Shown here piece by piece: positions 26,901 through 60,688 of a stretch of 61,246 nucleotides of DNA. The notes below the pieces were generated by a model, which did no database searches, was not told the origin of the DNA, and was given only the letters and a program-made list of their open reading frames with translations. Every line of letters starts with the position of its first letter. Position 1 is the first letter of the stretch. Made by a program: the position numbers and the translations under genes. This DNA is from Eubacteriales bacterium (GTDB lineage: Bacteria; Bacillota; Clostridia; Oscillospirales; CAG-272), in NCBI GenBank assembly GCA_045537015.1, contig JAZSOQ010000065.1, forward strand, positions 1-61,246, in the 5' to 3' direction.

Positions 26901-27538
26901 TTACTCTCAAGGATTCGAAGCTTGCTCTTTGGACCACCACGGGTAAGCCTCCTAAGGAAGAAAACATCTGGATCGCGGACGGCGTGAAGCTTCCCGCAAG
27001 AGGTGCGGTCGTGATCTGGTATCGCAAGCCCGAAAATGAGGCTTTGGCTGTCGAAGACTTCAACCGCAGATTCGGTACATCCCTTATTGAGGGTGAAAGT
27101 ATCTTCATTTGCGACAAGCCGATCACCTCGAGATCGACTGCGGGCAGAAGACTCGATCTTATTGTCGGCGGCGAGGTCATTTCACGCGTTTCCTGGAATA
27201 TGGGTGAGCGTCACGGTCAGGATGCCGAGATCGGCGAGACGTATAAGTATCGCTTCGATTGCGATATGTCGCCGCTTGGAATATTCTGCGGCAAGGGCAA
27301 TCCCGCACCCGGAAGCGTGGATTATAAGCAGCTTGGTGCACGTCTGGTCGTCGAACCTACCTACAAGGAGACCAAAAGCGCAAAGAAGCAGTCGAAGAAG
27401 GATGCAAAGCGCGCAAAGCATAAGGCGCAGATCAAGTATACAAAGGCTGAAGCAGGCGCGATCGCTGCCGGAAGCGCAGCTCTTGCAGCATTTGCCGCAG
27501 CGGCTATCACCAAGGCATTGTCAAAGAAAAATAAATGA
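23912..27538 (+). CDS. large multidomain protein: lamin-tail (LTD) / Ig-like / PHP metallohydrolase / LTD, with a C-terminal hydrophobic anchor
   Basis: 1208 aa. LTD-like segments are ITEIFGRPKGKEFCTYVELFNPTDKDVDLYDY and ISITEVLCAS...YVTLCNNSGNDITL. The PHP/CehA-like core is YFGEIHAHTGESDGNG...FFSVTEHSH...FNHPG. The tail is Lys-rich plus AIAAGSAALAAFAAAAITKAL-SKKNK. No N-terminal signal peptide is visible. Confidence 0.6.
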   Translation: MIKKFNGGCPTVLHASPEFAIKGEPFSVSAACRAYGENAPERLVMHIEGEKDYYLLPSDRYERLGIAYMIYRADIPASAINGDRLVYRIDAEGEHNAKLPPYICKLLEKQDMPQLSPITITEIFGRPKGKEFCTYVELFNPTDKDVDLYDYDVLVYSPTKEPLGTPKGRIPLSREAGVNILGAGETAAYWPITLRNYAPEINCLTKEDFIAQINSAYLYTKEPIDESKVNVIPVDLTEIDPESGARKNIDGICTLPSAHDATTLLVVPRDGDAESAVFTLLYSNCYAEWDTPVLRSSYWSFDPMNPRRAINLTHAELSTPGYPAYMQTGKYDLTAPLPTILPISPIKEAYHGDYCGTVEFVVLPADNDCEIGKTTVTVTLPSGEKAEYEAREEHDGVYRARIPEEVFEEFFELEYMISASDGARSVCLGNVLPIRVPVYDNRGPRITSMVPTRGYAYDGTKPIVIKASYTDVSGIRIKDCYLKLDGKDVTNDATITATSLVYEPKKPLEFGDHTLTIRLKDGLGNRTTRTVEFSVSDMSELSAYFGEIHAHTGESDGNGLCRDAIEFAYDNGADFFSVTEHSHYFTQDIYDEQKRIAKSLDRPGRFAALYGWEMTWNNTCGYWGHMNVIGSEKVVSDIHGVGMPALFKWLESEPNAVGMFNHPGQGWGDFEDYGFWTPEADRQMALAEIKGRGYDQQYALLLSRGWHVAPSFNEDNHAPNWTVGSPYITGVLAPALTRENVMEAFRARRVYSCADPTMKIFYKINGEWMGSRLNDPSALNVSVKVTTENENGIGRIEIIGEDNILVAYKAVGARQSYEWNVTLPVEFDYYYIRIQNGAQYSVTAPIWIENRQEPKVLSMVHSASYDPRESSAVTLKVENPTEKTMDEVRVDFYLTGIEGFSLRDAVPYAKVCIGKLKPGRHVSVTRQLPELSKNRRVTAIISAVSDKKVRKSTAYILLSPISITEVLCASGAIERDGETIENPFPYVTLCNNSGNDITLKDSKLALWTTTGKPPKEENIWIADGVKLPARGAVVIWYRKPENEALAVEDFNRRFGTSLIEGESIFICDKPITSRSTAGRRLDLIVGGEVISRVSWNMGERHGQDAEIGETYKYRFDCDMSPLGIFCGKGNPAPGSVDYKQLGARLVVEPTYKETKSAKKQSKKDAKRAKHKAQIKYTKAEAGAIAAGSAALAAFAAAAITKALSKKNK

Positions 27539-29473: not shown

Positions 29474-29623
29474 GTGTTTAACCTCCTAATGGTTTGTGTT
29501 CGTAAAAAAATATCCTTCTCCCGAGAGCGAGGCGCACCGAAAGAAAGACACAAATAAAGTATTTGATTCTTCCTCGGCAGGGTGGCATTCGCTTTTACGG
29601 GAACCTGCTGTCTTTGGATAACG
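29474..29623 (-). promoter_or_regulatory. rplJ 5' leader (candidate L10-type autoregulatory leader)
   Basis: About 150 nt of untranslated RNA lie between a consensus promoter and the rplJ RBS. They contain GC-rich pairing segments and a U-run. Assignment to the L10 leader family rests on position only. Confidence 0.45.
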
Positions 29624-29629
29624 GCATAG

Positions 29630-29658
29630 ATTATACCACATCTCGATCAATTTGTCAA
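29630..29658 (-). promoter_or_regulatory. consensus sigma-A promoter for rplJL
   Basis: The minus strand reads TTGACA (29658-29653), a 17-bp spacer, then TATAAT (29635-29630). Confidence 0.7.
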
Positions 29659-31584: not shown

Positions 31585-31941
31585 GCTTGATGTGCGAAGA
31601 ATGCGTTGAAGCGAAAGGTTGCCGCAAGAACATGCGGGTAATTTTCGTGGAGAAGTCCGAATTTGATCGGGCGCGTGGGCTATGTCAGGTACCGGGCGGC
31701 CTCTGTTCAAAGGTTGCTTCGTGACGACGGCTTTGTAGCCGTACGATCCGGAATTCGCGTCGCGCCGTGCTTGCGTGACGGCGGCGAGTGGCGGGTTTCG
31801 GCTTTTGTATGGCTGCAAAACGAAACGCACGGAACGGTGCATAACAGAATCCGCTCCTAACTTTTCGAACGCGCTGCGCAAATGGCTACATTTTATTATA
31901 TTCGCACGCACGCGAGAGAAAAAACAAGGAGGAAAACACAA
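31585..31941 (+). promoter_or_regulatory. long GC-rich structured 5' leader of rpsJ (unclassified)
   Basis: About 357 nt without a credible ORF, much more GC-rich than the flanking AT-rich DNA. It holds several stable hairpins and mutually exclusive helices (see findings). Confidence 0.45.
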
Positions 31942-47769: not shown

Positions 47770-48924
47770 TTATCTATATTTTCCCCGCGAGATGTCGCGC
47801 ACGGCGTCAGCAAGAGCGAGCGCGTCATCTGCGGTGTTGAAAGGGGAGAAGGACGCGCGGACGCTGCCTCCGCGATCGCTTCCGAGAACGGTGTGCGCCA
47901 TGGGATTGCAATGAAATCCGCCGCGTACACAAATGTCACGCTCGGAAAGAAGATTTGCCACTCGGTCGGACGGGATGCCGTCGATATTAAATGAGAGGAC
48001 CGATCCTGCGTTGCGCGGCGCATAGACTGTTACACCTCTGATCTCGGATAGCAACCTCAAGGTCTTCTTGAATAGCTTTTCCTCGTGAGAGGCAATGCTT
48101 TGAAGTCCAATGTCCTGCAGAGCCTTAATTCCCGCCGCTAAGCCCACGATCGCGGGAGTCGAAAGTGTGCCTGCTTCAAGCCTTTCGGGGAATTCGCGGG
48201 GCATTTCGGGGTCGAGAGAGGCACTTCCCGAGCCACCGAATGTCAGCGGTCGAGCGGGGAAGCTACTTGATATTATCAAAGCCCCGCTTCCTTGCGGACC
48301 GAGAAGACCCTTGTGCCCCGGAAGTGCAAGCGCCGAGATGTCGGAGCGCTTCATATCAATGGGGAAATGTCCCGCTCCTTGCGCGCCGTCAACGATGAAG
48401 TGCAATCCCTCACGCCGACAAAGCTCGCCTATTTCGTCAATAGGCATTCTTGCCGAGCAGATATTCGGGCAGGCGGTCGAGATCACCGCAACCGTTTCGG
48501 GACGCACGAGTGAAGAGATCGAGCGGCATATCTTTTGCGCGTTGCGATTTGGATCGAGAACGTGGGAATCGAAGACCGAGTATGAGCATCCGCGCTCGCG
48601 GGCAAGGTATTCGAGCGGACGGCGGACGGAGTTGTGCTCCATATCAGAGCAGATGAAATGTGCGCCTTCGCGTGCGAGCGAGAGAATGGCAATATTGAGC
48701 GCGTGAGTAGCATTCTGGCAGAATATCACGTTTTCGGGCGACTCAGCCGAAAAGAAATTGCACAGACTTGCCCTGCAATCGTAGATCTTTTCTGCTGCGG
48801 CAAAGGCAAGTTTGTGCGATCCCCGCCCGGGATTGCCGCAGTATTCTCTCATGCAGCGCGACATCTCCTCGATAACCTCGGGCGGCTTTGGAAAGGATGT
48901 GGCGGCGTTGTCAAGATAAATCAT
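47770..48924 (-). CDS. class-V aminotransferase fold PLP enzyme (cysteine desulfurase / selenocysteine lyase-like)
   Basis: 384 aa (MIYLDNAATSFPKP, GHKGLLGPQGSGAL with the PLP lysine, NPMAH). Confidence 0.8.
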   Translation of the reverse strand: MIYLDNAATSFPKPPEVIEEMSRCMREYCGNPGRGSHKLAFAAAEKIYDCRASLCNFFSAESPENVIFCQNATHALNIAILSLAREGAHFICSDMEHNSVRRPLEYLARERGCSYSVFDSHVLDPNRNAQKICRSISSLVRPETVAVISTACPNICSARMPIDEIGELCRREGLHFIVDGAQGAGHFPIDMKRSDISALALPGHKGLLGPQGSGALIISSSFPARPLTFGGSGSASLDPEMPREFPERLEAGTLSTPAIVGLAAGIKALQDIGLQSIASHEEKLFKKTLRLLSEIRGVTVYAPRNAGSVLSFNIDGIPSDRVANLLSERDICVRGGFHCNPMAHTVLGSDRGGSVRASFSPFNTADDALALADAVRDISRGKYR

Positions 48925-48927
48925 TGC

Positions 48928-49146
48928 TTACTCCTTGATGATCTCGCGCTCGGCGACGGAGTTGTTTGAAAACGCCATCCGCACACTGAAAAGCTTGCTC
49001 TCATCAAAGGCAACTCCCCACGAGCATCCGCGCCTCGTCCTCGTCGAGTCTACCTTGACTACGTCCGCTGCAATTTGTTCGTTTTTTAGCACCCTCGCCG
49101 CTTTCTGCGCCAGTGTGAGTGTAGGAAAAACTGCAATATATCTCAT
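48928..49146 (-). CDS. DUF3343-like small protein (putative S/Se carrier)
   Basis: 72 aa from ATG 49146 (MRYIAVFPTLTLAQKAARVLKNEQIAADVVKVDSTRTRRGCSWGVAF...), with a GAGG RBS. The longer ORF-track start 49236 runs into the upstream terminator. Confidence 0.6.
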   Translation of the reverse strand: MRYIAVFPTLTLAQKAARVLKNEQIAADVVKVDSTRTRRGCSWGVAFDESKLFSVRMAFSNNSVAEREIIKE

Positions 49147-49224: not shown

Positions 49225-49263
49225 AAAAAACTCCAACAGACTCAGTGATCTGTTGGAGTTTTT
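49225..49263 (-). terminator. terminator after the P-type ATPase
   Basis: A 10-bp stem, CTCCAACAGA (49231-49240) with TCTGTTGGAG (49249-49258), is flanked by an A-run and a T-run. Confidence 0.8.
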
Positions 49264-49264
49264 G

Positions 49265-51166
49265 TTATTTCGTTTTAAGTATCCTTGAGCTGTTGATCAG
49301 CACGACGAACGCGCCGACGTTGTGGAATATCGCGCCGAAGAGGGCGGAGATCACGCCGAAGAGGGAAAGTCCGATCATCGTAAGGCTGATGAGAACAGAA
49401 AGGATGAGATTCTGATAAATGATCTTTCTCGTCTGCTTGGAGAGCTTGATGATGAAGGGAATGTTTTCGAGGTTGTTATTCATCAGGGCGATGTCCGACG
49501 ACTGGATCGCAAGGTCGGAGCCCATTGCACCCATCGAGATACCAACGTCTGCTTGACGTAGCGCCGGCGCGTCGTTGATACCGTCGCCGACTGCGAGAAC
49601 ACAGCTGCCCTCGCGCAGGGAATTGATCGCTTCCAGCTTATCCTGGGGAAGGAGCTGGTACTTGACGTCATCGGCGCCAACCTCGCTTGCGATCTTTCTT
49701 GCCGCGGCTTCACGGTCACCCGTGAGGATAACGGTGTTCTTGATTCCCATCTCCTTGAGAGTTGATATGCTCTCGGCGGCTTCTGCGCGCGCTGTGTCGT
49801 TGAAACCGAGGCAGCCGATAAGTACGCCGCCGCGTGAAACGAAGCTCACAGAGCCGAGAAGAGCCTCACCGAAGCCCTCGGGAATGGCAATGCCGAGTGA
49901 ATCGAACCAGTATTTATTGCCGAGAAGAAGCTCGCGACCTTCGGAGTCCTTGCCCTGCATACCCTTGCCGGGGATCTCCTTGACCTCATTGAGCACCTCG
50001 TATTCCTTGCCTTCAATAGCCTCGGTTACCGCACGTGAAACGGGGTGGTTGGAGCCGCAAGCAAGGGAAGCGGCGAGGGAGAGAAGGGTGTCTTCATCGT
50101 AACCCTCTGCGGGGAGAATATCGGTCAGCGAAAGTTCGCCGACGGTGAGTGTACCGGTCTTATCAAATACGACGGTTTCAACCTCTGTCATCTCCTCGAT
50201 GAATTTTGAGTTCTTGATAAGTATTCCTCGTTTTGTTGCGGTTGAGAGCGATGCGATCATCGGCGCAGAGCTGACGAGCATCTGACCGCAGGGGCAGGAA
50301 ACGACGAGTATCGCGATCGCCTTCGAAAGATCCGAGGTTATCAGCGCGACAGCCGCCGCAAGTGCGAGTACGAAGGGGATGTAATAGCGCATAAAGCGGT
50401 CGATAAGTCTTGATTCGGGAATCGAGATGTTTTCCGCTTCCTCGAGCATTGTGAGAATGTTTGAGAATGAAGTGTCAACGTAAGCCTTTTCGACCTTGAC
50501 GAGAATTCGTCCGTCGATGTTGACTGTGCCCGCGTAAACGCTGTCTCCGACCTTGATGTGCGCGGGAAGGGGTTCGCCGGTCAGCGATTTCTGGTCTACG
50601 TTCGTTTCACCCGAAATGACCTTTCCGTCGATCGGAATGCCGGAGCCGGGTCTTACGACGATTGTCTGACCGACTTCAAGAGAGGATGCCTCGACGGTTC
50701 TTTCAACGTCGCCGTCAAGAAGGACCGCGCTGTCCTGGCGCATTCTCTTGAGGCCGTCAATAGCCTCGCGTCCGCCCATAATGCTTCGCTCTTCAAGAAG
50801 ATGCGCGATGTTGAGTATCAGCGGAATGAGGACCGAAAGGATCAGGTCGCCCGAAAGGTAGCAAGCAAGGATCGCAATGGCAACGAGAATTTCCATTGCG
50901 TTTGTGAAGTTTCGCGAGAAGATGCCCTTGAGCGCCGCAACGAAGACGGGAATACCTTCAATAAGGAATCCGATGGTGTAGAGAAGCGCGGGAAGGGTGG
51001 TTTTATCCGGAAATACCCAGGAATAGATGATTCCCACGGCAATACAAACGAGTGCCGCTGCGGCGCTGACGAGATTTGCCGTCAGAGCGCGGCGATTTTT
51101 GTCATTAAGATTATCCTTGGCGAGGGCTTCAAGGCTGTTTTTCGCAATGTTATCTAAATTTTCCAT
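49265..51166 (-). CDS. P1B-type heavy-metal-translocating ATPase without an N-terminal metal-binding domain
   Basis: 633 aa with TGEP, SCPC in the transmembrane region, FDKTGTLT, SNHP, GDGINDAP and a C-terminal FHNVG...NSSRIL. Confidence 0.88.
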   Translation of the reverse strand: MENLDNIAKNSLEALAKDNLNDKNRRALTANLVSAAAALVCIAVGIIYSWVFPDKTTLPALLYTIGFLIEGIPVFVAALKGIFSRNFTNAMEILVAIAILACYLSGDLILSVLIPLILNIAHLLEERSIMGGREAIDGLKRMRQDSAVLLDGDVERTVEASSLEVGQTIVVRPGSGIPIDGKVISGETNVDQKSLTGEPLPAHIKVGDSVYAGTVNIDGRILVKVEKAYVDTSFSNILTMLEEAENISIPESRLIDRFMRYYIPFVLALAAAVALITSDLSKAIAILVVSCPCGQMLVSSAPMIASLSTATKRGILIKNSKFIEEMTEVETVVFDKTGTLTVGELSLTDILPAEGYDEDTLLSLAASLACGSNHPVSRAVTEAIEGKEYEVLNEVKEIPGKGMQGKDSEGRELLLGNKYWFDSLGIAIPEGFGEALLGSVSFVSRGGVLIGCLGFNDTARAEAAESISTLKEMGIKNTVILTGDREAAARKIASEVGADDVKYQLLPQDKLEAINSLREGSCVLAVGDGINDAPALRQADVGISMGAMGSDLAIQSSDIALMNNNLENIPFIIKLSKQTRKIIYQNLILSVLISLTMIGLSLFGVISALFGAIFHNVGAFVVLINSSRILKTK

Positions 51167-51179
51167 CGAAAAAACCTCC

Positions 51180-52121
51180 TTAATTATTAATGACTATCTT
51201 GGAATCCGAATCATCAACGATTTTGACTGTACCGATCTTGCGGATTATGTTGGTGATCGCGGTGTTATACAGTCGAACCCTTACAACCTCGGGGTTTGCG
51301 TTGTATTCCTCAAGCACGCCGTAAAATTCGTAAAGATCGGAATTAGCGGCGGCTGTGTAGTTCGAGTAGTTTGCACGAGCCTCGGCGATGAGGGAGTTTG
51401 CCTCCGCCTCTGCGCCGGGAATTCTCGTTTCGTAATACTGACGAGCCTGCTCGATTCGCGTGCTTGCCTGAATGTTGGTCGAATTTACGAGCTCGTAGAT
51501 GTCGCGGACCTCCTCGGGCATACCAACACGGGTCAGCTCAAGGTGGCTGAGCGAGACACCGATGCCGCTTTCATCGAGCTTCTTCTGCGACATCTCGCGG
51601 ACAGCCTTTGTGTATGCGTCCTTGCCCGTTGTAAGAATGTCGTCAACCGCGTAGTTTGCCGCTACGTTGATCATTGCATTGCTGACTGCGGCGTTGATGA
51701 TGTAGCCGGGATCCTTCACCGCAAGCGCAAACGCAACGGGATCGGTGATCGTGTATTTGATGGATGCAGAGAGAATGGCAATGTTGTTGTCACCCGTGAT
51801 AACATAGCCGTTTCTGTCATAAGTAGTCATTTCACCATCTGTGAAATGAGTGTTGACGGTCAGCTCATGCACGCTTCCCGTGGGGATGGTGATGACCTCG
51901 TCGATGATGTAGGGGAAGGCGAAAAGTACGCCCGCATCGTGGACCTGCTCCTCGCGAGTATCGCCCACTATCTTGCCGAATCGCAATATGATCGCCGATT
52001 CGCCGCTCTTGATGAATCTGATTCCCGAGCAGGCGATGATGATGACCACGGCGATGATTATCACGACAAAATAGCGCGACACCGTTCGCAGGATGTCTTC
52101 AAATAAAAGATTCTTTTTCAT
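51180..52121 (-). CDS. SPFH/band-7 domain protein (HflC-like)
   Basis: 313 aa with an N-terminal TM followed by FIKSGESAIILRFGKIVG.... ATGA overlap with the upstream gene. Confidence 0.75.
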   Translation of the reverse strand: MKKNLLFEDILRTVSRYFVVIIIAVVIIIACSGIRFIKSGESAIILRFGKIVGDTREEQVHDAGVLFAFPYIIDEVITIPTGSVHELTVNTHFTDGEMTTYDRNGYVITGDNNIAILSASIKYTITDPVAFALAVKDPGYIINAAVSNAMINVAANYAVDDILTTGKDAYTKAVREMSQKKLDESGIGVSLSHLELTRVGMPEEVRDIYELVNSTNIQASTRIEQARQYYETRIPGAEAEANSLIAEARANYSNYTAAANSDLYEFYGVLEEYNANPEVVRVRLYNTAITNIIRKIGTVKIVDDSDSKIVINN

Positions 52122-53212
52122 TGTGCGTTACCCTTTGCGGCTTCTTCGAGAAGCTTGCCGATGGCGTCAATAAGCGTCTGTCTGTCGGTTTCGTTCATCT
52201 GTGCGAGAATATCGGAAAGATTTTGGATTATGATTTCGTCATCCTCGGTTTCAAGCATATCCGAATAATCCCTGAGAGCGGTGAAGGGATAGTCATCGGT
52301 GCTGAAAATAGCAACTGTGCCAGAGTTTACGGATGCGGCAAGAGTATCAAGACTCTTGAGGAACATGAAGAGCTCGAGATTTGCTGCCTGAGCTTCTGCA
52401 TAGATCTGCGCGACTGCCTTTTCGGTATCTGCCTTGATCTGTGCGGCTTCGTTGGTGCCCTTGGCGATTATTTCCTCGGCTTTGACTTCAGCCTCGTTTG
52501 TAATGCGGCTTGCTTCCTTTTCGGCGTTTGCAAGGATGGTGTCAATGTCGGTCTGTCTGTCCTGGCGCATCTGATCGAATACGCTTTGGAGGTTAATATC
52601 GGGGAGGCTGAGGCGAAGGATGCTGACGTCGACGATCGAGATTCCATAGTTCTTTTCGCAGTTTTCCTTGACTTTTTCAAAGATCTTTTGCTGAATTTCT
52701 TCGGTCTTGATCTTTTCGGTGTCGAGGGATACGAGCTCGGTCAGCTCATAAGCGCCCATTGTACTCTGTGTCGCACTTCTGATCTGCTGATCGATGTAGA
52801 TCTCCGTGCTGCCGTAAGCGCCGACGCTGTTGTGGAAGAGAAGGGGATCTTCAACCTGCCAGATGACGTAAGAGGAGAGAATGATGTTTCTCTTATCCTT
52901 TGTTACCGTTTCCTGCGCGTTGGATTCGAGATACTGCATTCTGTTTTCATACTGAACAACGTTCTCGAAGGGCCAGGGCAGGCGGAAGTAAAGTCCCGAT
53001 TCTGTGATCTCCGCGCGGGGAGCACCAAAACGGAGAACAACTGCACAGTTACCCTCACGAACTTCAAATGTGAAGCCGAAGTAAGCTATTGCCGTGACGA
53101 GCAGGAGCGCGACGAATACCTTGAGAAAACGCATTCCAAAGCTCGATTTTTCGCGAGGCTCGTGCGAGATCGCCATTTTTTCGTTATTTTCTGTTACTTT
53201 ATTCTTTTTCAT
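52118..53212 (-). CDS. SPFH/band-7 domain protein (HflK/C-like) with a coiled-coil tail
   Basis: It has an N-terminal TM, then FEVREGNCAVVLRFGAPR...GLYFRLPWPFENV, then an A/E/K-rich helix. ATG 53212 (MKKNK) is preferred over the GTG at 53221. Confidence 0.78.
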   Translation of the reverse strand: MKKNKVTENNEKMAISHEPREKSSFGMRFLKVFVALLLVTAIAYFGFTFEVREGNCAVVLRFGAPRAEITESGLYFRLPWPFENVVQYENRMQYLESNAQETVTKDKRNIILSSYVIWQVEDPLLFHNSVGAYGSTEIYIDQQIRSATQSTMGAYELTELVSLDTEKIKTEEIQQKIFEKVKENCEKNYGISIVDVSILRLSLPDINLQSVFDQMRQDRQTDIDTILANAEKEASRITNEAEVKAEEIIAKGTNEAAQIKADTEKAVAQIYAEAQAANLELFMFLKSLDTLAASVNSGTVAIFSTDDYPFTALRDYSDMLETEDDEIIIQNLSDILAQMNETDRQTLIDAIGKLLEEAAKGNAQ

Positions 53213-53227
53213 ATTGATCACCCGAAA

Positions 53228-55009
53228 TTAGTTTTTGATAGAGCCGTACCAGACGATGCGAGATTCATCGATGTCCGAGCTGACTATGATGAGATTGGCA
53301 TTGCCGTATGCATTCTTAACGGCATTGAGGTATTTATAATATCTGTAAGCGTCCGAATAAGAGGAGTCAGCGGCGACGCTTGCCATAAACTCGGAAACCT
53401 CTGCTTGAGCCGCGGCTATCTTGTTGAGTCTTTCTGCGGTTGCCACGGATACCGTTTGGCTGTAATTGGTTTCAGCTTCAAGCACGCGAACTGCGGCAAA
53501 AGCCTCGGCATACATAATTCGTGTCTGTGCTTCGATCTCTGCGCTTACAAGCCTCTGATAAATATCGGCAATGCCGAGAGGGGGATGAATGCTTTCAAGG
53601 ACTACGCTGACGATCTCGAGTCCCGTGTTGCGTTCCTTGATCTTTTCCTTCAGATCGACCATAAATGCCGATGCGAATTCGTCGCGGTCGGTTGAAAGAA
53701 GTGTGTTGAGGTCGGTGGTTATCGTCTTGTCCGCGACAAGCTCATAAGCGCTTGCCTCGAGCACCGACTCGGGGCGCGCGCAGTTGACAAGATAGTCGTT
53801 AAGGTTGCCGATCTTGTATTCGATGCAAAGGTTGATCGAAACAAGCTCTTCACCTCCGCCAAGCAGAAGCTCGTATTCCTCGCTTCCGTGCGTCTGTGTC
53901 CAAACGTTGTCGCCCGAAGTGTCGGAGCGGTAGCCTATCGTAATGGTCGATACAGAATCGGTGTTGTATATAACTGTCTTGCCGAATGGCCAGGGGAGAG
54001 TCAGATGCAGACCCGGCTCGAGCGGTTCGCTTTGAAGCTTTCCGAAGTTATAAAGCGCGCCTTGCTGTCCCGCGCCGATCTCAACAAATCCCGTCGAGAT
54101 CCAGAAAATAAGAAATGCGGCGACAAGAGAGGGGATGATGAGCTTGCCCATAAGCTTGACGCTCCAAAGGCCGCGCATCGTGATTCCCGTGTTTTCCTCG
54201 AGGTAGGAAAGGATGCCCATATCCTTTCCGCTTCCGCCCGAGAAGGGAGCGGGAATGCGGATGTCGGGCACACTTGCGAGCTCGTGGCGAATTCCTCTTG
54301 CCAGGTATGAAAGCAGAGTGAAGAGCGATGACCAGTAGAATATGATCGCAATCGCAATGACCACGTACTTCTGAAGCTCATAAAAGCCGAGGAGCTTGAT
54401 GAACATCGCGGGAATTATAAGTATCAGCGCAAGCCTTGCAAGAGCCAAGATCGAGCGCACGTTGCTTCCGAGAGCGGAGGCGTATTCACCCGCATCCTCG
54501 TTGTGAAGCATCCATTTGTCAAGGACTATGAAGACAAGGAAGAGCGCGATCAGAAGAACGGCGTAGGCGTAATTGACCGTGTAAAGCGAGGTCGCAGCCT
54601 TGAGCGAAATGGCAAAGAAATACTGAATCGCGACGAATGCCGCTGCGGCGAGTATGACTGAGAGATAGCGGATAACCTTTTCTCCGTCGATCTTGTCGCA
54701 TAGCTTGCAGAAGAAATTCTTGATCGCCTTGCCGATAGCTCGAAGAACCTTTTTGAATTCCTTTTCCTCGGGTGCCGGTTCTGAGTTCTCTGCAAGAACT
54801 TCTTCTTTCTTTTCCTTCTTTTTTGTCGGTATCTTCAAGATGAAAAGTGAGAAGTTGACCGCCGAGGGGAGAAGGAGAGTCAGTCCGAGAAGATAGATGG
54901 GTAGGTATTTTGTCAGCTTGTATAAATAAATCATTCCGATGCCGCAAGCTATCGCAACGATCAGCGATATCAGCGGCGGGAGAAGCTTTCGAAATTTGTT
55001 ATTTTTCAT
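53228..55009 (-). CDS. polytopic membrane protein fused to an SPFH/band-7 domain
   Basis: 593 aa with about 7 predicted TM helices in the first 305 aa, followed by GAGQQGALYNFGKLQ...GLHLTLPWPFGK (SPFH). Confidence 0.72.
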   Translation of the reverse strand: MKNNKFRKLLPPLISLIVAIACGIGMIYLYKLTKYLPIYLLGLTLLLPSAVNFSLFILKIPTKKKEKKEEVLAENSEPAPEEKEFKKVLRAIGKAIKNFFCKLCDKIDGEKVIRYLSVILAAAAFVAIQYFFAISLKAATSLYTVNYAYAVLLIALFLVFIVLDKWMLHNEDAGEYASALGSNVRSILALARLALILIIPAMFIKLLGFYELQKYVVIAIAIIFYWSSLFTLLSYLARGIRHELASVPDIRIPAPFSGGSGKDMGILSYLEENTGITMRGLWSVKLMGKLIIPSLVAAFLIFWISTGFVEIGAGQQGALYNFGKLQSEPLEPGLHLTLPWPFGKTVIYNTDSVSTITIGYRSDTSGDNVWTQTHGSEEYELLLGGGEELVSINLCIEYKIGNLNDYLVNCARPESVLEASAYELVADKTITTDLNTLLSTDRDEFASAFMVDLKEKIKERNTGLEIVSVVLESIHPPLGIADIYQRLVSAEIEAQTRIMYAEAFAAVRVLEAETNYSQTVSVATAERLNKIAAAQAEVSEFMASVAADSSYSDAYRYYKYLNAVKNAYGNANLIIVSSDIDESRIVWYGSIKN

Positions 55010-56027
55010 TGGTGCCTCCGGGGTAATTGAAGACCTTACTCAGATCTCTGAAATTGAATGCGTTGTCATTTGTGGATATTGCGTCAAACTCTGCTTCGCT
55101 TCCTTCGTAAAGGAGAAGTGTGAGCGACATACAATCGGTGAAGTGAGAGGTTTTAATCGCTGTCAGCGTTTTGGGAATGTAAATTATTCTCATACTCTGG
55201 CAGTATTCAAAGGTGTTTGAGCCGAGCTGAGTCATACTCTTTCCGAGATCTACAGATTTTAATTCATAGCAGTTAAGGAAGGCCTGGCTTCCGATATATC
55301 TTGCCGTGTCGGGAAGATTCAGCGAGCGAAGCTTTTCGCATCCCGAAAACGCCTGATCTCCGATATATACGAGCGAAAGTCCGAGGTCGATATCCACAAG
55401 ATTCATACAGAAGGAAAGTGCCATATCCGAAATGCTGAGCAGTTCCTTGTTTGCCGTGATCGTGTAGACAGTTTCGACTCCCGCAAATGCTCCACCGAGG
55501 TGACGGACCTTGTCGGGCAGAACGGGAGTGCGCGAACTTCCGTTATAGGCTATAAGAACTCCGCCGCCGACGGTCACAAACTCATCTGTCTGCGCGGCGA
55601 GCCACGGGGTGTTCTCAAACGCAAACGGAGCGATGCGCCATACGCTATCGGCTACTTCGACCGAGGTGAGCGCGGTACAATCGGAAAAGGCGTATATTCC
55701 GATCGATTCAATTCCGTTTGGTATGCTGACAGAAGTTATCGACGTGTTTTTGAAGAATGCACCTTCGCCGATGGCGGTGACCTTTCTGCCCGCAAGCTCG
55801 GCGGGTATCTTTACGTCGCCCGTGACGTCGGCTTCGTTGATAACAACACTTCCGTCGTCCAGAACGGTAAATGAGTATCCGCTCTCAAATCCCATTTCGT
55901 CGGTGGGAGTGCGGAGAGTAAAATCAAAGGCTTCGGGCGTAAAAGCGGTTTCTGTTTCCTTGCAGGAGAAAAGCAAGGGGAGAATCATAACGAGGATAAG
56001 AATGTATGCGGTCGTTTTAATCTTCAT
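54999..56027 (-). CDS. BspA-type leucine-rich-repeat lipoprotein
   Basis: 342 aa. The lipobox is MKIKTTAYILILVMILPLLFSC. It carries repeated ...IGxxAFxxCxxLxSVxIP... units. Confidence 0.75.
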   Translation of the reverse strand: MKIKTTAYILILVMILPLLFSCKETETAFTPEAFDFTLRTPTDEMGFESGYSFTVLDDGSVVINEADVTGDVKIPAELAGRKVTAIGEGAFFKNTSITSVSIPNGIESIGIYAFSDCTALTSVEVADSVWRIAPFAFENTPWLAAQTDEFVTVGGGVLIAYNGSSRTPVLPDKVRHLGGAFAGVETVYTITANKELLSISDMALSFCMNLVDIDLGLSLVYIGDQAFSGCEKLRSLNLPDTARYIGSQAFLNCYELKSVDLGKSMTQLGSNTFEYCQSMRIIYIPKTLTAIKTSHFTDCMSLTLLLYEGSEAEFDAISTNDNAFNFRDLSKVFNYPGGTNEK

Positions 56028-56959
56028 TATTCTGCCTCCTTGATCTGTCCGCTCAGCGATTCGTTGCCCTCACCGATCGAAACGCTTGCTTTGTCGGCAA
56101 ATACAACCTCGGTGAGTTGGTCGCATGCGTGGAATGCATAGTCGCCTATGGCTTTACAGCCTTTTCCGATCTCCACGCTGTAAAGCGCACGGCAGTTTCT
56201 GAAGGCCTCCTCGTTTATTGCCGTCACATTATCACCTGTCTTGACGGATGTCAGCGAAACGCAATCGAGGAAACAATATTCGGGGATCTCGGCGGAGCAG
56301 AGCATTTCAACAACCGCAAGACCGTCACAACCCCAGAAAGCCGATTCGCCGACCGAAGTCACGGCATTTGGAATTCTGATGCGAGAGAGGGCTGTGCATC
56401 CGCGGAAGGCTTCGGCTCCGATAGAGGTGAGCGATTCGGGTATTGCAAGCGAGGAGAGCGAGGAACAGCCCGCAAAAGCCTGAGATTCGATAGCGGTGAG
56501 CTGATCAGTGCCGTCGATGCGGGCAAGATTTGCGCAATTCTCAAAAGCATTTTCGGGGATGATGCTTACCGATCCCGAAAGGTTGATTCCCGTGAGAGCG
56601 ATGCTGCCTGAGCAGAATCCTTTTCCGAGCTTGATATTGCCCTTTGGAAGCTCAAGGTAGAGCAGAATGTCATTGTCTGCCAACGCGTTCTCTCCGATCT
56701 CGACAACGGTCATACCGTTGATCTTTTCGGGTATTATCAGATGCTTTGGCATACCGTCGATACCCGTGATCCTGACGGTTGAGTTCTCGTATTGATCGTA
56801 TATGTAAATATCAAACGTCAAGCCTTCCGCAACAATGGCATATTCTGTTTCCGAAAAGCTGTTGCACGAGGCTAAAATGAAGGTCAGAATGATCGGCGCA
56901 AGGCAGGCAAGCGCCAAGCAAAATAGCTTTTTTGATTTCATTTTTGTGTCCTTTCGCAA
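56027..56959 (-). CDS. BspA-type leucine-rich-repeat lipoprotein (paralog of the downstream gene)
   Basis: The signal/lipobox is MKSKKLFCLALACLAPIILTFILASC, and it carries the same LRR unit. The ORF-track start is TTG 56959; ATG 56941 is more likely. Confidence 0.75.
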   Translation of the reverse strand: MRKDTKMKSKKLFCLALACLAPIILTFILASCNSFSETEYAIVAEGLTFDIYIYDQYENSTVRITGIDGMPKHLIIPEKINGMTVVEIGENALADNDILLYLELPKGNIKLGKGFCSGSIALTGINLSGSVSIIPENAFENCANLARIDGTDQLTAIESQAFAGCSSLSSLAIPESLTSIGAEAFRGCTALSRIRIPNAVTSVGESAFWGCDGLAVVEMLCSAEIPEYCFLDCVSLTSVKTGDNVTAINEEAFRNCRALYSVEIGKGCKAIGDYAFHACDQLTEVVFADKASVSIGEGNESLSGQIKEAE

Positions 56960-56982
56960 AGGAATATATAATTATTCAATTT

Positions 56983-57011
56983 ATAATATCATATTTAGAG
57001 CAAAAAGTCAA
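56983..57011 (-). promoter_or_regulatory. sigma-A promoter of the LRR-SPFH-ATPase operon
   Basis: The minus strand reads TTGACT (57011-57006), a 17-bp spacer, then TATTAT (56988-56983). Confidence 0.55.
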
Positions 57012-57065: not shown

Positions 57066-57971
57066 TCAGATGTCTATATGTTCAAGCTGATCTTCGGTGT
57101 CGATCTTCGGTCGGAATGCCTTGCGCTTGAGAGGATCGTAAAGGAACTTGCGGCATTTGTGAGTTGCGCTGACAACGCCGAATCTGTCGCAAACCATCTT
57201 GGTGCGGTCGCTTTTGAGTGCCGTTGCGTGCTCGCAGCACTCGCAGCATTCGGCACACTCGTCTTCGTTGCAAGAGTGCGCGATCCTGTCGATACTGTCA
57301 CGCTTTTCAACCGATGCGGCAAGGGCGGCGCGGCGCTTGCGTTCAAGATCTTCTTTAAGGATCTCCTCTGCGCTCTTCTGCGGGATGAAGGAGAGAAAAT
57401 ATACGATGATGAACAGCGCAAGAACCGAAAGTGCAAGAATTTCAACTCCCGAATCGAGTATCGCGTAAGGGATAAATCCAAGAGATCTAAGGTAGGGAAA
57501 AGCGTCTCCTACAGAAATTACGTGCATATCAAGGCGGAAAAATTCGTTTGAATGAATATAGTCACCAAACGCCCACGCGCTGTATGTAATGAATGCGCTG
57601 ATGAAAAACGCAATGGTTGAGGCAACTGTGTTGACAATAGCTCCGCGTCTTTTAAGAATACCTGCGCCGCATATAAGACCGATGAAATTCAGACAGATGA
57701 TTCCAAAAGAGATTGCCGCAAGAGTGCCGATGCCGGGATAGGTGCGAAGGCAAGGGATCACCGTGGACACGAGCCCTCCCGTGTCACCGCAAACAACTAC
57801 CGCAAGAGCAACGTAAATCGGCACGATAATGAAAAATGCAATCAGTCTTCGAGCGGAATTTGCACGCCGCAAGCAGACAAAAGTTGCTATTGCCGCGAGT
57901 GCGGGAAAGAAAATGGCGAAAACGAGCGTCCATATCGGATAGCTCATCAATGAAGCTAAACTGAAACTCAT
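57066..57971 (-). CDS. membrane protein with a Cys-rich C-terminal domain
   Basis: 301 aa with about 6 TM helices, then CNEDECAECCECCEH...C...HKC...FLYDPLKR. Confidence 0.6.
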   Translation of the reverse strand: MSFSLASLMSYPIWTLVFAIFFPALAAIATFVCLRRANSARRLIAFFIIVPIYVALAVVVCGDTGGLVSTVIPCLRTYPGIGTLAAISFGIICLNFIGLICGAGILKRRGAIVNTVASTIAFFISAFITYSAWAFGDYIHSNEFFRLDMHVISVGDAFPYLRSLGFIPYAILDSGVEILALSVLALFIIVYFLSFIPQKSAEEILKEDLERKRRAALAASVEKRDSIDRIAHSCNEDECAECCECCEHATALKSDRTKMVCDRFGVVSATHKCRKFLYDPLKRKAFRPKIDTEDQLEHIDI

Positions 57972-58015: not shown

Positions 58016-59110
58016 TCAAATCTTGCGCTTTCTGTCAAGAAGTTTGATCAAAGCGAGCGCAAAAATAATATTCACCGCCACGGTGAAGGTCTGCGGATAA
58101 GAAATAACGGATGAGAAGGCGTCTTCGGCGACGTTGATTTTTTCTGTGAACGACGGAATTAAGTATGTAATAATTGCTGTAACAGAGGAGCAAATAATTG
58201 TGCAAAAGACTTTGGATCTGATATACGGAACAAGCAAAAGCGCCTCGGCATCGGTGCGCGTGAGCGAATAGATCTGTAAAAATACCGAAAGTCCCGACCA
58301 TCCGCACGCCGCGGCGGCAAGGATGAGGGCGAGCCGAGGCTCATTGATCGACGTGCAAGCCGCGCAACCCGAGGTAAGCTCGAAAAACGAAAACAACAAC
58401 GCCCGCAGAGGAGAACTTGCTCCCGCTCCGAATAGTGACGATATACAACCGACAATGCAGGTGAAAAAGGTCACAAAAGCGCACACGGAGATCACGGAAG
58501 CCGCGGCGGAAACTACCGATGAGGAAAACAGAGATAGTGTGTTTTCGTTGTTCAAAGTGGCTTCGGATGATTTAATATTATCAGATTGCCTGCCTTTGCG
58601 GCGGAAAAGTATTCCGTAAAGCAATCCGGAAAAAAGTACGGTGCAGTAAAGCAGTATCCCGATGTCCTTGTTTCCGAACATCCCTCCTCCGACGGCAAAA
58701 ATCACAAACGGCGCTGACGGGAAGTTGCAAAACGAAAGCAGATGCTCGCAATCCTTCTTGCTTATATCCCCGCGCGAGTAAAGCGATGTCGCCGCTTTTG
58801 CTCCAACGGGAAAGCCGCAGACGATCCCGAGCAAAAGTGCCGAGGCACATTCTCCCGAAACTCCGAAAAGTGCCTCCATCGGTCGCCTCATAAGGCGCGA
58901 TATGGGTTCACAAGCCCCGGAGCGAACGAGCAGCTCGGAGATTACCATAAAAGGGAAGAGCGAGGGAACGAGCGTATCAAAGCAGATCCTCATCCCGCGC
59001 CTCATCTGTTCGCTTGCGATCTCCGAGTCGAGAAAAAGCAGAATGAACAGAAAAATGCACAGGACAGAAATTGCTGTCCCGCTTCCCGAATGTTTGCGTA
59101 CCGATAACAT
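58016..59110 (-). CDS. ylbJ: sporulation integral membrane protein YlbJ (nucleoside-recognition/Gate domain)
   Basis: ICFDTLVPSLFPFMVISELL and GFPVGAK match the family. ATG 59110 (MLSVRK) is preferred, because ORF-track start 59233 would overlap the divergent yqfC. Confidence 0.7.
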   Translation of the reverse strand: MLSVRKHSGSGTAISVLCIFLFILLFLDSEIASEQMRRGMRICFDTLVPSLFPFMVISELLVRSGACEPISRLMRRPMEALFGVSGECASALLLGIVCGFPVGAKAATSLYSRGDISKKDCEHLLSFCNFPSAPFVIFAVGGGMFGNKDIGILLYCTVLFSGLLYGILFRRKGRQSDNIKSSEATLNNENTLSLFSSSVVSAAASVISVCAFVTFFTCIVGCISSLFGAGASSPLRALLFSFFELTSGCAACTSINEPRLALILAAAACGWSGLSVFLQIYSLTRTDAEALLLVPYIRSKVFCTIICSSVTAIITYLIPSFTEKINVAEDAFSSVISYPQTFTVAVNIIFALALIKLLDRKRKI

Positions 59111-59175
59111 GTAATCGACCACCCCTTGCCCGCATATTATTTTATAAAAAAGTGTATTCAAATGAATCGGAGGAA

Positions 59176-59505
59176 ATGATGAAGAAAAGAAAAATACGCA
59201 ACGAAAGGCCGACTCTGCCCGAGCTTTTGTCAAAGCTTGCGGATATCCCCGCGGATCTTACCTCGGGAATGAGCCTTGAGATGCGCGGCAGAAACGAATT
59301 GCTTCTTTGCGGCTGCCGCGAGATACTTTGCTACTGTCCCGAAAGGATCTCGCTTCAGCAAAGCGGATATTGTGTTTTGATCGAGGGCAGAAGGCTTGCG
59401 ATGTCGTCATATTCCGACGGCAGGATAAGCATTCGCGGCGAGATCGATCGGATAGATTATTGCGGAGGTGAGAAAAATGAAAAAGAAAAACAGAGGCACG
59501 GCTGA
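59176..59505 (+). CDS. yqfC: sporulation protein YqfC
   Basis: MMKKRK...GMSLEMRGRNELLLCGCREILCY...ISIRGEIDRIDY. A GGAGG RBS precedes it. The start is ATG 59176 or ATG 59179. Confidence 0.75.
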   Translation: MMKKRKIRNERPTLPELLSKLADIPADLTSGMSLEMRGRNELLLCGCREILCYCPERISLQQSGYCVLIEGRRLAMSSYSDGRISIRGEIDRIDYCGGEKNEKEKQRHG

Positions 59506-60688
59506 TAGCTTCCTTTTCGGCAAAGCAAGGCTGGAATGCGCCGAGGAGAATCTTATCCCCATGCTCAACGTTTTGCTTTCGATGGGAGAGAGCTATTCGA
59601 ATATCGTGTCTGCGGAAGGCGTTGCTTCGGTTGACATAGCATATATTTCCGCACGACGCGCAGTAGCTCTTTGCCGTGCTTCGGGAATCGAAGCAAAAGC
59701 CGTTCTGCTTTCGGGACTGCCTTATTATTTGGGGCGCCTGCTGTTACGTCCGGGAATGATAGTGGGTATGGCTGTTGGATTGCTGATACTCGGCCTCGGC
59801 AACAGCGTTCTTTGGGACGTCAGAGTTGCAGCGAATGAGGCTATTGAAACGGCAGAAGTAAAAGCTCTCCTTGCCGAATACGGAGTCAAACCCGGCGCGT
59901 GGATGTCGCATCTTGACGTCGGTGATATTCAAACGAGAATAGAACACGATTCGGAGGAGATCGCGTGGATGTCGATAAACGTGATCGGCACGGTCGCTTA
60001 TGTCGAGGTGATTCCGGAAGTAAATGAGCCTCCCGAAGAGGGCGGTGAAGGTGACGGAGCAAATCTCGTTGCCGAACGCGACGGGGTGATCGTTGGGTAT
60101 GAACTGATCGCGGGTGAGCCGACGGTGGAGATCGGACGGACGGTCAGAAAAGGCGAGCTGATCGCAAGCGGACTTTACGACAGCGAACGATTCGGATTTC
60201 GCGCGACACACGCCAAAGGCAGCGTTTTTGCACGGACCGAGTATCTGTTTGAGGCGGAAATTCCTTATGATTACACGGTCAGGGAGGCTCAAAGCAGTGA
60301 AATCAGCGAAATTTCTATAATTTTTTTCTCTTTTAGACAAAAATTTTTCAAAAAGGGTGGATTTTCGGGTACTAAATATGATAAAATATACTCGGATATT
60401 TATATATACTCTTCGGGGGACGCAACGATACCCATTGGGCTCGCGGTTACGAGAGTTCCGATATTTGCGGAAAGGGATGCAAAGCGCACGCCTGCTGAGG
60501 CGGTGGATATAGCGTATTTTGAGATCAACCGCAAAATTCTCGCCTCGATTCCCGAGGCTGAGATACTTTCAAAATCATTCAGCGGCGGCGAGAATTCCGA
60601 CGGCACGGCTTACAGGCTTGAATGCCGCGTCGAGTGCATCGACGACATTGCCGAGACGGTCCCCTTTTACATCAACAGATCCGAGTGA
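59468..60688 (+). CDS. yqfD: sporulation protein YqfD
   Basis: 406 aa with a central TM and the expected family layout. It lies directly after yqfC and before phoH, as in Bacillus and Clostridium. Confidence 0.72.
   Translation: MRKMKKKNRGTADSFLFGKARLECAEENLIPMLNVLLSMGESYSNIVSAEGVASVDIAYISARRAVALCRASGIEAKAVLLSGLPYYLGRLLLRPGMIVGMAVGLLILGLGNSVLWDVRVAANEAIETAEVKALLAEYGVKPGAWMSHLDVGDIQTRIEHDSEEIAWMSINVIGTVAYVEVIPEVNEPPEEGGEGDGANLVAERDGVIVGYELIAGEPTVEIGRTVRKGELIASGLYDSERFGFRATHAKGSVFARTEYLFEAEIPYDYTVREAQSSEISEISIIFFSFRQKFFKKGGFSGTKYDKIYSDIYIYSSGDATIPIGLAVTRVPIFAERDAKRTPAEAVDIAYFEINRKILASIPEAEILSKSFSGGENSDGTAYRLECRVECIDDIAETVPFYINRSE

Follow-up and report, generated by a model that had tools for sequence, protein, structure and literature searches.

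A conserved operon of uncultured Clostridia links three HflK/HflC-type SPFH proteins to a P1B-type ATPase of their own

We analysed a 61,246-nt stretch of DNA from an uncultured Eubacteriales bacterium (contig JAZSOQ010000065.1; hereafter the window), in which six consecutive genes on the minus strand, named g1 to g6 in the order of their transcription, encode two leucine-rich repeat (LRR) lipoproteins, three SPFH proteins of the HflK/HflC type and a P1B-type ATPase. The six open reading frames (ORFs) span positions 49265-56959 (-). Comparison with related genomes identifies four of these genes as the universal core of the module, namely a HflK-like protein with seven transmembrane (TM) helices (g3), an HflC-like protein (g4), a second HflK-like protein (g5) and the P1B ATPase (g6). 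The SPFH trio and this ATPase are reciprocal and exclusive partners in one transcription unit, because the synteny found from the SPFH side is matched by the reverse test from the ATPase side, the gene junctions are tight, and the unit has its own promoter. We consider it moderately probable that the products form an extracytoplasmic assembly of the HflK/C type together with a dedicated metal pump that it scaffolds or regulates, similar to the PacL-CtpC effluxosomes.

As the most distinctive protein of the operon, g3 was chosen for a homologue search in 5.8 billion proteins, and the named homologues all belong to uncultured Clostridia/Eubacteriales that live in gut or rumen. Relatives at 46-54% identity show the arrangement LRR_5, TM-Band_7, Band_7, Band_7 and ATPase in three unrelated genomic contexts. 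A survey of 185,579 species-representative genomes yielded 80 loci. By tblastn with the six proteins of the window, g3, g4, g5 and g6 are adjacent in all of these loci that are sufficiently long, with order and strand preserved. The lowest identities to the window proteins among these loci are 38% for g3 and 59% for g6, the ATPase being the best conserved member, and outside the close relatives the flanking genes on both sides are unrelated. For the reverse test, the back-translated TM4 motif of the ATPase, CPCGQM, was scanned through metagenome contigs. It matched 13 in-family ATPases, and SPFH genes adjoin the ATPase gene in 11 of the 11 contigs with enough flanking sequence; two further look-ups that started from the ATPase agree. 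A homologue search with the ATPase returned in-family proteins only (at least 66% identity). The preliminary description of this DNA had expected all six genes to be syntenic in related genomes and had envisaged a system of SPFH proteins, ATPase and LRR adaptors. The order of g3 to g6 is indeed invariant in the 80-genome survey and the link between SPFH proteins and ATPase holds in both search directions, whereas the LRR pair is absent in a large clade and is a clade-specific addition, not an obligate adaptor. Public annotations of the proteins read “hypothetical”, “SPFH domain-containing”, “protease modulator HflK” and “cation-translocating P-type ATPase”.

Within the window, the six genes are bracketed by a near-consensus promoter and a strong terminator, as first described. 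The promoter (56983-57011, -), which is conserved in relatives, consists of TTGACT, a 17-nt spacer and a TG-extended -10 element, TATTAT, and it sits in the intergenic gap past the upstream gene's own terminator (57060-57028). It is among three sites that share the top score of 10/12 in the region and is the sole one with TG before the -10 element; promoter-like matches across the region are near chance (9 found vs. 6.2 ± 2.8 expected). Of 82 loci, 60 have a promoter of the form TTGACA-17-(TG)TAnnAT immediately 5' of the gene that opens the module, and 49 of these include the TG. At the distal end, an intrinsic bidirectional terminator with a 15-bp stem, an 8-nt loop and a T-run (49226-49263, -) follows right after the g6 stop codon. 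This is the strongest terminator-like site, and the terminator-like sites within the operon are weak, with stems of 5-6 bp.

Direct reading of the sequence confirms all five junctions that had been claimed: TAATG at g1/g2, an 11-nt overlap at g2/g3 with GGAGG preceding the g3 ATG, a 15-nt gap at g3/g4, an ATGA overlap at g4/g5, and a 13-nt gap at g5/g6, where the sequence reads TAA, GGAGGTTTTTTCG, ATG. The gene starts are most likely ATG 56941 rather than TTG 56959 for g1, and ATG 53212 rather than GTG 53221 for g4. Short or overlapping junctions are kept across species, in line with the coupling proposed earlier: the median gaps are -8 nt for g2/g3, 15 nt for g3/g4, -1 nt for g4/g5 and 12 nt for g5/g6, and the genes overlap in 35 of 50 loci at g2/g3 and in 50 of 82 loci at g4/g5.

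The region 3' of the -10 element (56941-56982 in the window, with equivalents in about 60 loci) contains 20-25 nt of nearly pure A/T with TATA-like units. Inverted repeats are seen in this stretch in several loci, e.g. CTATAT-TAG-ATATAG or GTATA...TATAC, and in many loci a GC-rich hairpin (CCTTTGCGAAAGG in the window) lies 3' of it and abuts the Shine-Dalgarno sequence. The A/T stretch and the hairpin may represent an operator or leader element. No consistent palindrome or motif could be defined for the A/T stretch across loci, and it could not be matched to the Fur/Zur/PerR, CopY, ArsR or NikR consensus sequences. Likewise, Rfam gave no match for the part of the window that holds the operon or for 8 relatives with long 5' untranslated regions.

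The domain assignments given earlier (two LRR proteins, three SPFH proteins and one P1B ATPase) agree with Pfam and NCBIfam. The proteins g3 (53228-55009, -), g4 (52118-53212, -; 364 aa) and g5 (51180-52121, -; 313 aa) all belong to the SPFH/Band 7 family (PF01145), with Band_7 E-values of 1.3e-11, 2.3e-26 and 1.4e-21, respectively. Against the hflC model TIGR01932, g4 scores 136.1 bits and thus exceeds the cutoff of 134.4; against the hflK model TIGR01933, g5 and g3 score 137.3 and 77.4 bits, both below the cutoff of 159.4. The best sequence matches in the PDB are E. coli HflC for g4 (3.7e-21) and HflK for both g5 (2e-20) and the C-terminal half of g3 (8e-11). For g4 and g5, which have one N-terminal TM helix each, the alignments extend from this helix through nearly the whole C-terminus. 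The three proteins are mutually only about 21% identical, yet each is conserved across species, which marks them as apparently distinct, anciently diverged subunits.

All three show, by prediction, the layout typical of HflK and HflC, which is an N-in TM anchor followed by an extracytoplasmic SPFH domain, a long coiled-coil helix and a C-terminal cap segment. The SPFH domains are predicted to lie outside the cell, like those of HflK/C, from hydropathy, the helices in the AlphaFold2 (AF2) model, homology and positive-inside counts, with 4, 14 and 4 Lys/Arg residues in the predicted inner loops compared to 0 and 0 in the outer loops. In this predicted topology the lipoproteins g1 and g2 share the outer face with the three SPFH domains, and so the suggestion that the LRR proteins could face the SPFH domains is compatible with it. 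At the locus L206 (5789-7039) the g4 orthologue has 416 aa and carries a C-terminal collagen-like Gly-X-Y tail (weak Pfam Collagen match), which suggests a lineage-specific decoration atop the SPFH assembly.

In g3, the HflK-like SPFH part is preceded by an N-terminal bundle of six TM helices and a seventh TM helix as anchor; the 7-TM module noted at the outset holds by both hydropathy and AF2. Besides the six TM helices, the first 300 residues contain a loop that is Lys-rich and disordered, an amphipathic helix and a nearly invariant cytoplasmic motif (YLEENTGITMRGLWS); the anchor helix comes next. In the AF2 model (pLDDT 69) the SPFH domain is followed by a 73-residue helix (478-550), and the top Foldseek match of the model is HflK (7vhq_E, E 1.9e-12, TMt 0.71), with further matches to the stomatin, prohibitin and erlin folds. 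The N-terminal domain, on the other hand, matches no Pfam family even at E = 10 and has no significant fold match in a Foldseek comparison with the PDB. Among 1.84 billion representative proteins it has no more than 69 relatives, and it is restricted to this fusion architecture, because the full-length relatives are all 550-640 aa long. The best, non-significant Foldseek matches of residues 1-300 (54110-55009, -) are all cation-diffusion-facilitator (CDF) zinc transporters, i.e. ZnT7, ZnT3, SLC30A10 and YiiP, with E-values of 0.2-6 and TM-scores of 0.35-0.45. We considered a CDF/ZnT fold for the bundle and rejected it, as these matches are below significance and were treated as generic helical-bundle noise.

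The fourth core protein, g6 (49265-51166, -), contains E1-E2_ATPase and HAD domains and lies above the cutoffs of both TIGR01512 and TIGR01525 (520 bits for the latter). Eight TM helices by hydropathy, a CPx motif in TM4 and the catalytic motifs identify it as a P1B-type ATPase, and its best match in the PDB is ZntA (4umv, 5e-82), with an alignment that covers MA to M6. The motifs DKTGT, TGE, SxHP, GDGINDA, SCPCGQML in TM4 (which reads SCPCGQMLVSSAP) and HNxGAF in TM6 are invariant over 75 homologues. Because its catalytic and SCPC motifs are invariant, g6 looks like an intact pump, and it is most likely catalytically competent. The protein has no HMA or other N-terminal metal-binding domain, and a conserved N-terminal peptide, MEN..SLEAL..DNL, takes its place.

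The assignment of g6 to a known P1B subgroup is less straightforward. With regard to P1B-2, the ZntA residues K693 and D714 align to Ser and Asn, respectively, and the Pro is shifted by two residues relative to CPCx6P (CPCGQMLVSSAP). The P1B-6 signature consists of N-x18-H-N-x-(S/T) between TM5 and TM6 together with SCA in TM4 (PMC13460109). In g6 the H-N pair is followed by x-Gly instead of Ser/Thr, no Asn is found 19 residues upstream of it, and TM4 has CPC, not SCA; the comparison with CtpC-like pumps, which the H-N pair recalls, was made by this published signature. As quoted, the signatures of P1B-1, -2, -4 and -6 all fail to fit, and we treat g6 as a putative unclassified P1B subgroup. 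The substrate exported via its Cys-Pro-Cys/His-Asn site is most likely a transition metal of soft or borderline character, either divalent or monovalent. A ZIP-family (PF02535) permease gene lies divergently and directly upstream of the module at the loci L031 (6016-6795, -), L205 (872-1633, -) and L206 (1057-1818, -), and also at L035, L037, L038, L039, L047 and L056 (one clade). The adjoining permease gives a faint hint that the metal of g6 may be divalent.

The two upstream genes of the operon, g1 (56027-56941, -; 304 aa, lipobox LASC) and g2 (54999-56027, -; 342 aa, lipobox LFSC), encode BspA-type lipoproteins that combine LRR_5 repeats (Pfam, 7e-45 and 2.5e-41, respectively) with a signal peptide and lipobox Cys. 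They are about 26% identical to each other, and the lipobox is present in nearly all of approximately 95 g1/g2 homologues. LRR genes occur at 45 of the 75 tips of the ATPase tree, a distribution that requires only 3 gains or losses (Fitch), and the pair therefore counts as an accessory that some clades have inherited stably rather than as part of the universal core. In the large clade that lacks them, unrelated housekeeping genes precede g3; the upstream ORFs of about 300 aa at these LRR-less loci were considered as replacement partners and rejected, since they encode unrelated housekeeping functions (pfkB-like, nucleotidyltransferase, AraC, Lgt, SerRS). At L206 (2038-3972) a single LRR_5 lipoprotein of 644 aa joins an N-half like g1 in frame to a C-half like g2, with one signal peptide and a Gly/Ser linker that replaces the signal peptide of g2. 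This fusion in one protein provides evidence that g1 and g2 probably work together on the outer face.

How could these proteins act together? We propose that the three SPFH proteins insert N-in/C-out and would co-assemble into an HflK/C-like hetero-oligomeric ring or dome; sitting outside on the cytoplasmic membrane, this would fence off a patch of membrane. The TM bundle of g3 and its cytoplasmic motif may tether the pump in or at this patch; these membrane and cytoplasmic elements are the likely tether, given that hardly any of the pump's surface is extracytoplasmic. The SPFH assembly would then stabilise, cluster or gate the pump, comparable to the role of PacL for CtpC/CtpG and of HflK/C for FtsH, and in the lineage studied here the LRR lipoprotein pair would be added on the outer face as accessory binding partners. 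We infer the physical association as such, the cage geometry, the adaptor role of g3, the metal and the direction of regulation.

Several observations weigh against this scaffold model. The SPFH domains lie at the outer face, a side on which a P1B ATPase exposes next to nothing, and contact between the two would need TM helices or the cytoplasmic loops of g3; no interface was identified. To our knowledge, FtsH is the sole established client of HflK/C. Furthermore, no conserved linked metalloregulator, metallochaperone or known riboswitch was found in the flanks across loci and, by Rfam, in the leaders, and the consensus housekeeping promoter argues against a classic metal-induced detoxification. 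With a promoter of this type, a constitutive and possibly metallation-related role is as plausible as detoxification. Finally, all carriers of the module are uncultured metagenome-assembled genomes, in which mis-assembly is possible at any single locus; as an explanation for more than 90 independent contigs it is implausible.

A more far-reaching version of the model, to which we assign only a slim chance, takes the SPFH dome as a closed extracytoplasmic chamber over the pump. Such a “pseudo-periplasm” would confine the exported metal and pass it on to resident partners rather than let it diffuse off, with the six-TM extension of g3 docking the pump and, where present, the LRR lipoprotein pair as the residents. 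Clostridia normally have a single membrane and no periplasm. If true, this would be the first SPFH cage to enclose a transporter instead of a protease, and a new kind of compartmentalisation of metal trafficking.

The relationship to HflK/C also allows a conventional explanation, in which the gene of the FtsH protease lies elsewhere and the SPFH trio modulates this protease, the ATPase being either a privileged substrate of FtsH or a membrane-stress gene under shared regulation. On this view the module would not scaffold the pump directly but would control its turnover by proteolysis. The score of g4 above the curated HflC cutoff and the best matches of g5 and g3 to HflK are in favour of this explanation, as is the position of FtsH as the only established HflK/C partner, and P-type ATPases such as MgtA are under FtsH-dependent control. 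However, ftsH was found neither in the operon and its flanks nor anywhere else in the 61-kb window; the absence of both ftsH and nfeD had been pointed out before, and no FtsH or NfeD domain occurs among the operon proteins or in the flanks. A generic modulator of FtsH would also not be expected to be tied strictly and reciprocally to one private ATPase subgroup. In E. coli HflK, the residues R141, E142 and R185 contact FtsH (PMC13220708). They align to H/E/N in g5 and to S/D/E in g3, which is a weak argument since the periplasmic domains of FtsH diverge too. Taken together, we regard regulation through FtsH as unlikely.

Two other explanations do without an SPFH scaffold. The pump and the SPFH proteins could simply be needed under a shared condition, such as envelope or metal stress, and be co-expressed without forming a physical complex. 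This would be consistent with the predicted topology, which places most of the SPFH proteins on one side of the membrane and most of the ATPase on the other, and with the lack of a known interface, but order, strand and overlapping stop/start codons have been kept over deep divergence and many genomic relocations. Moreover, the SPFH proteins and the ATPase are private to each other, a pattern typical of obligate subunits. Because the linkage is strict and reciprocal, loose co-regulation is disfavoured, and we give this explanation little credence. We think it very unlikely that the module follows a division of labour like that of KdpFABC, in which the ATPase would energise transport through, or a conformational change of, the six-TM bundle of g3, and in which something other than a classic P1B metal could be the substrate. 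The bundle is conserved and private to the module, its best fold matches, though non-significant, are six-TM CDF zinc transporters (E 0.2, TM-score 0.37-0.45), and a ZIP permease gene divergently adjoins the module in one clade. Yet these fold matches are below significance, the g3 helices have no conserved CDF-type Asp/His metal site, and the ATPase has retained an invariant intramembrane CPC/HN site of its own, so that it looks like a complete transporter by itself.

The genes around the operon were examined as well. Upstream, at 57066-57971 (-), lies the gene of a 301-aa multi-TM protein with a Cys-rich C-terminal tail (CNEDECAECCECCEH...C..F....HKCRKF), which has no Pfam or NCBIfam match and is also found upstream of g1 in close relatives and at L070 (27% identity). 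We rejected it as a part of the module, since its gene ends in a separate terminator and is present at no more than 12 loci. Further upstream come the sporulation genes ylbJ, yabP and yqfD (58016-60688), and the downstream region (47770-49146, -) encodes a DUF3343/Se-S-carrier-like protein and a cysteine desulfurase. The Se/S-carrier and sporulation-gene context is common only to the close relatives L001, L005-L016 and L026. The Se/S-carrier and cysteine desulfurase genes were likewise rejected as module parts, as they lie beyond the terminator and are linked in close relatives only; in L001 an APH gene separates them from the ATPase gene. An anti-phage defence system was also dismissed, because none of the six proteins matches a PADLOC model. 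Elsewhere in the window, an Rfam L10_leader match (29498-29635, -; 45.1 bits vs. a threshold of 44) is located among mostly plus-strand genes, an S10-Clostridia leader is found at 31598-31682 (+), and a 1208-aa ORF between ftsZ and the ribosomal-protein region (23912-27538, +) has weak Lamin-tail-domain and DUF3604 matches only.

Among the characterized systems, E. coli HflK/HflC-FtsH (PDB 7VHP, 7WI3, 9CZ2, 9PAW) resembles the module in the adjacent HflC-like and HflK-like pair g4/g5 and in the single N-terminal TM helix, extracytoplasmic SPFH domain and long coiled-coil helix, which are predicted here. In contrast, the module has three paralogues instead of two, in the order K'-C-K and one of them with a novel six-TM extension, its genetically linked client is a P1B ATPase and not FtsH, the FtsH-contact residues are not conserved, and its hosts are the normally single-membrane Clostridia. 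Members of the HflK/HflC subfamily are characterized by a cage or nautilus assembly of 24 subunits (12+12). In the operons that pair SPFH proteins with NfeD (QmcA-YbbJ, PDB 8Z5G; PH1511-PH1510; FloA/FloT) an SPFH gene is likewise co-transcribed with a dedicated membrane partner, and the SPFH protein forms a domed oligomer, as proposed here for the trio. The module differs in its three SPFH subunits and in its partner, which is an enzyme, namely an ion pump, and no NfeD match was found in the six proteins or their neighbours.

The scaffold-dependent pumps of mycobacteria offer a different kind of parallel. In M. tuberculosis, the operon-encoded scaffolds PacL1-3 are needed for the stability and clustering of CtpC, CtpG and CtpV (PMC9374683, PMC13043812, PMC13460109), and PacL1/CtpC is the precedent for a P1B pump that depends on a scaffold (PMC9374683, PMC13460109). 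There, too, the P1B ATPase gene lies directly downstream of one or more dedicated membrane scaffold genes in one operon, the PacL proteins feature flotillin-like Glu/Ala-rich helices, and CtpC resembles g6 in combining CPC with an H-N motif in TM6. PacL proteins, however, are small single-TM DUF1490 proteins whose cytoplasmic scaffold region binds the N-terminal metal-binding domain of the pump, while the scaffolds proposed here are true SPFH proteins that are predicted to face outward and the pump lacks such a domain; neither DUF1490 nor DUF6110 was found in the operon proteins. Mycobacterial flotillin is dispensable for PacL/CtpC foci (PMC9374683, PMC13043812, PMC13460109). The P1B-2 pumps ZntA and CadA share with g6 the eight TM helices, CPC in TM4 and all P-type catalytic motifs, and differ from it in that g6 has no HMA domain, HNxGAF in TM6 and a shifted Pro. 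Three SPFH genes in one operon are known from PaFlo5-PaFlo6-PaFlo7 of Pseudomonas aeruginosa (PMC13086221), but that operon has no linked ATPase. In eukaryotes, complexes of stomatin with channels or transporters, e.g. stomatin-AQP1 (PDB 9ZD2), are SPFH assemblies that bind transport proteins; there the stomatin is homo-oligomeric and the complexes are not encoded by an operon.

Full-text searches of the literature gave no description of an operon that combines SPFH or HflK/C proteins with a P-type ATPase, in agreement with the preliminary description, which had not been aware of such a system. What is new is therefore the module of SPFH trio and P1B pump, while operons with three SPFH genes, scaffold-dependent P1B pumps and SPFH-transporter complexes were already known. 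The content of bacterial SPFH cages beyond FtsH is a long-standing question, and the client lists of flotillin and HflK/C are mostly indirect. In the module described here, one defined P1B pump and an HflK/C-type assembly are hard-wired to each other genetically, one to one, with a candidate adaptor in the six-TM extension and, in some clades, optional lipoprotein partners, and this makes the idea of an SPFH cage as a dedicated scaffold directly testable. The SCPCGQM/HNxGAF pumps without a metal-binding domain would constitute an unclassified P1B subgroup. If the scaffold model is correct, the concept of scaffold-dependent metal efflux would reach beyond the PacL proteins of mycobacteria and take in genuine SPFH proteins of Clostridia that are abundant in gut and rumen.

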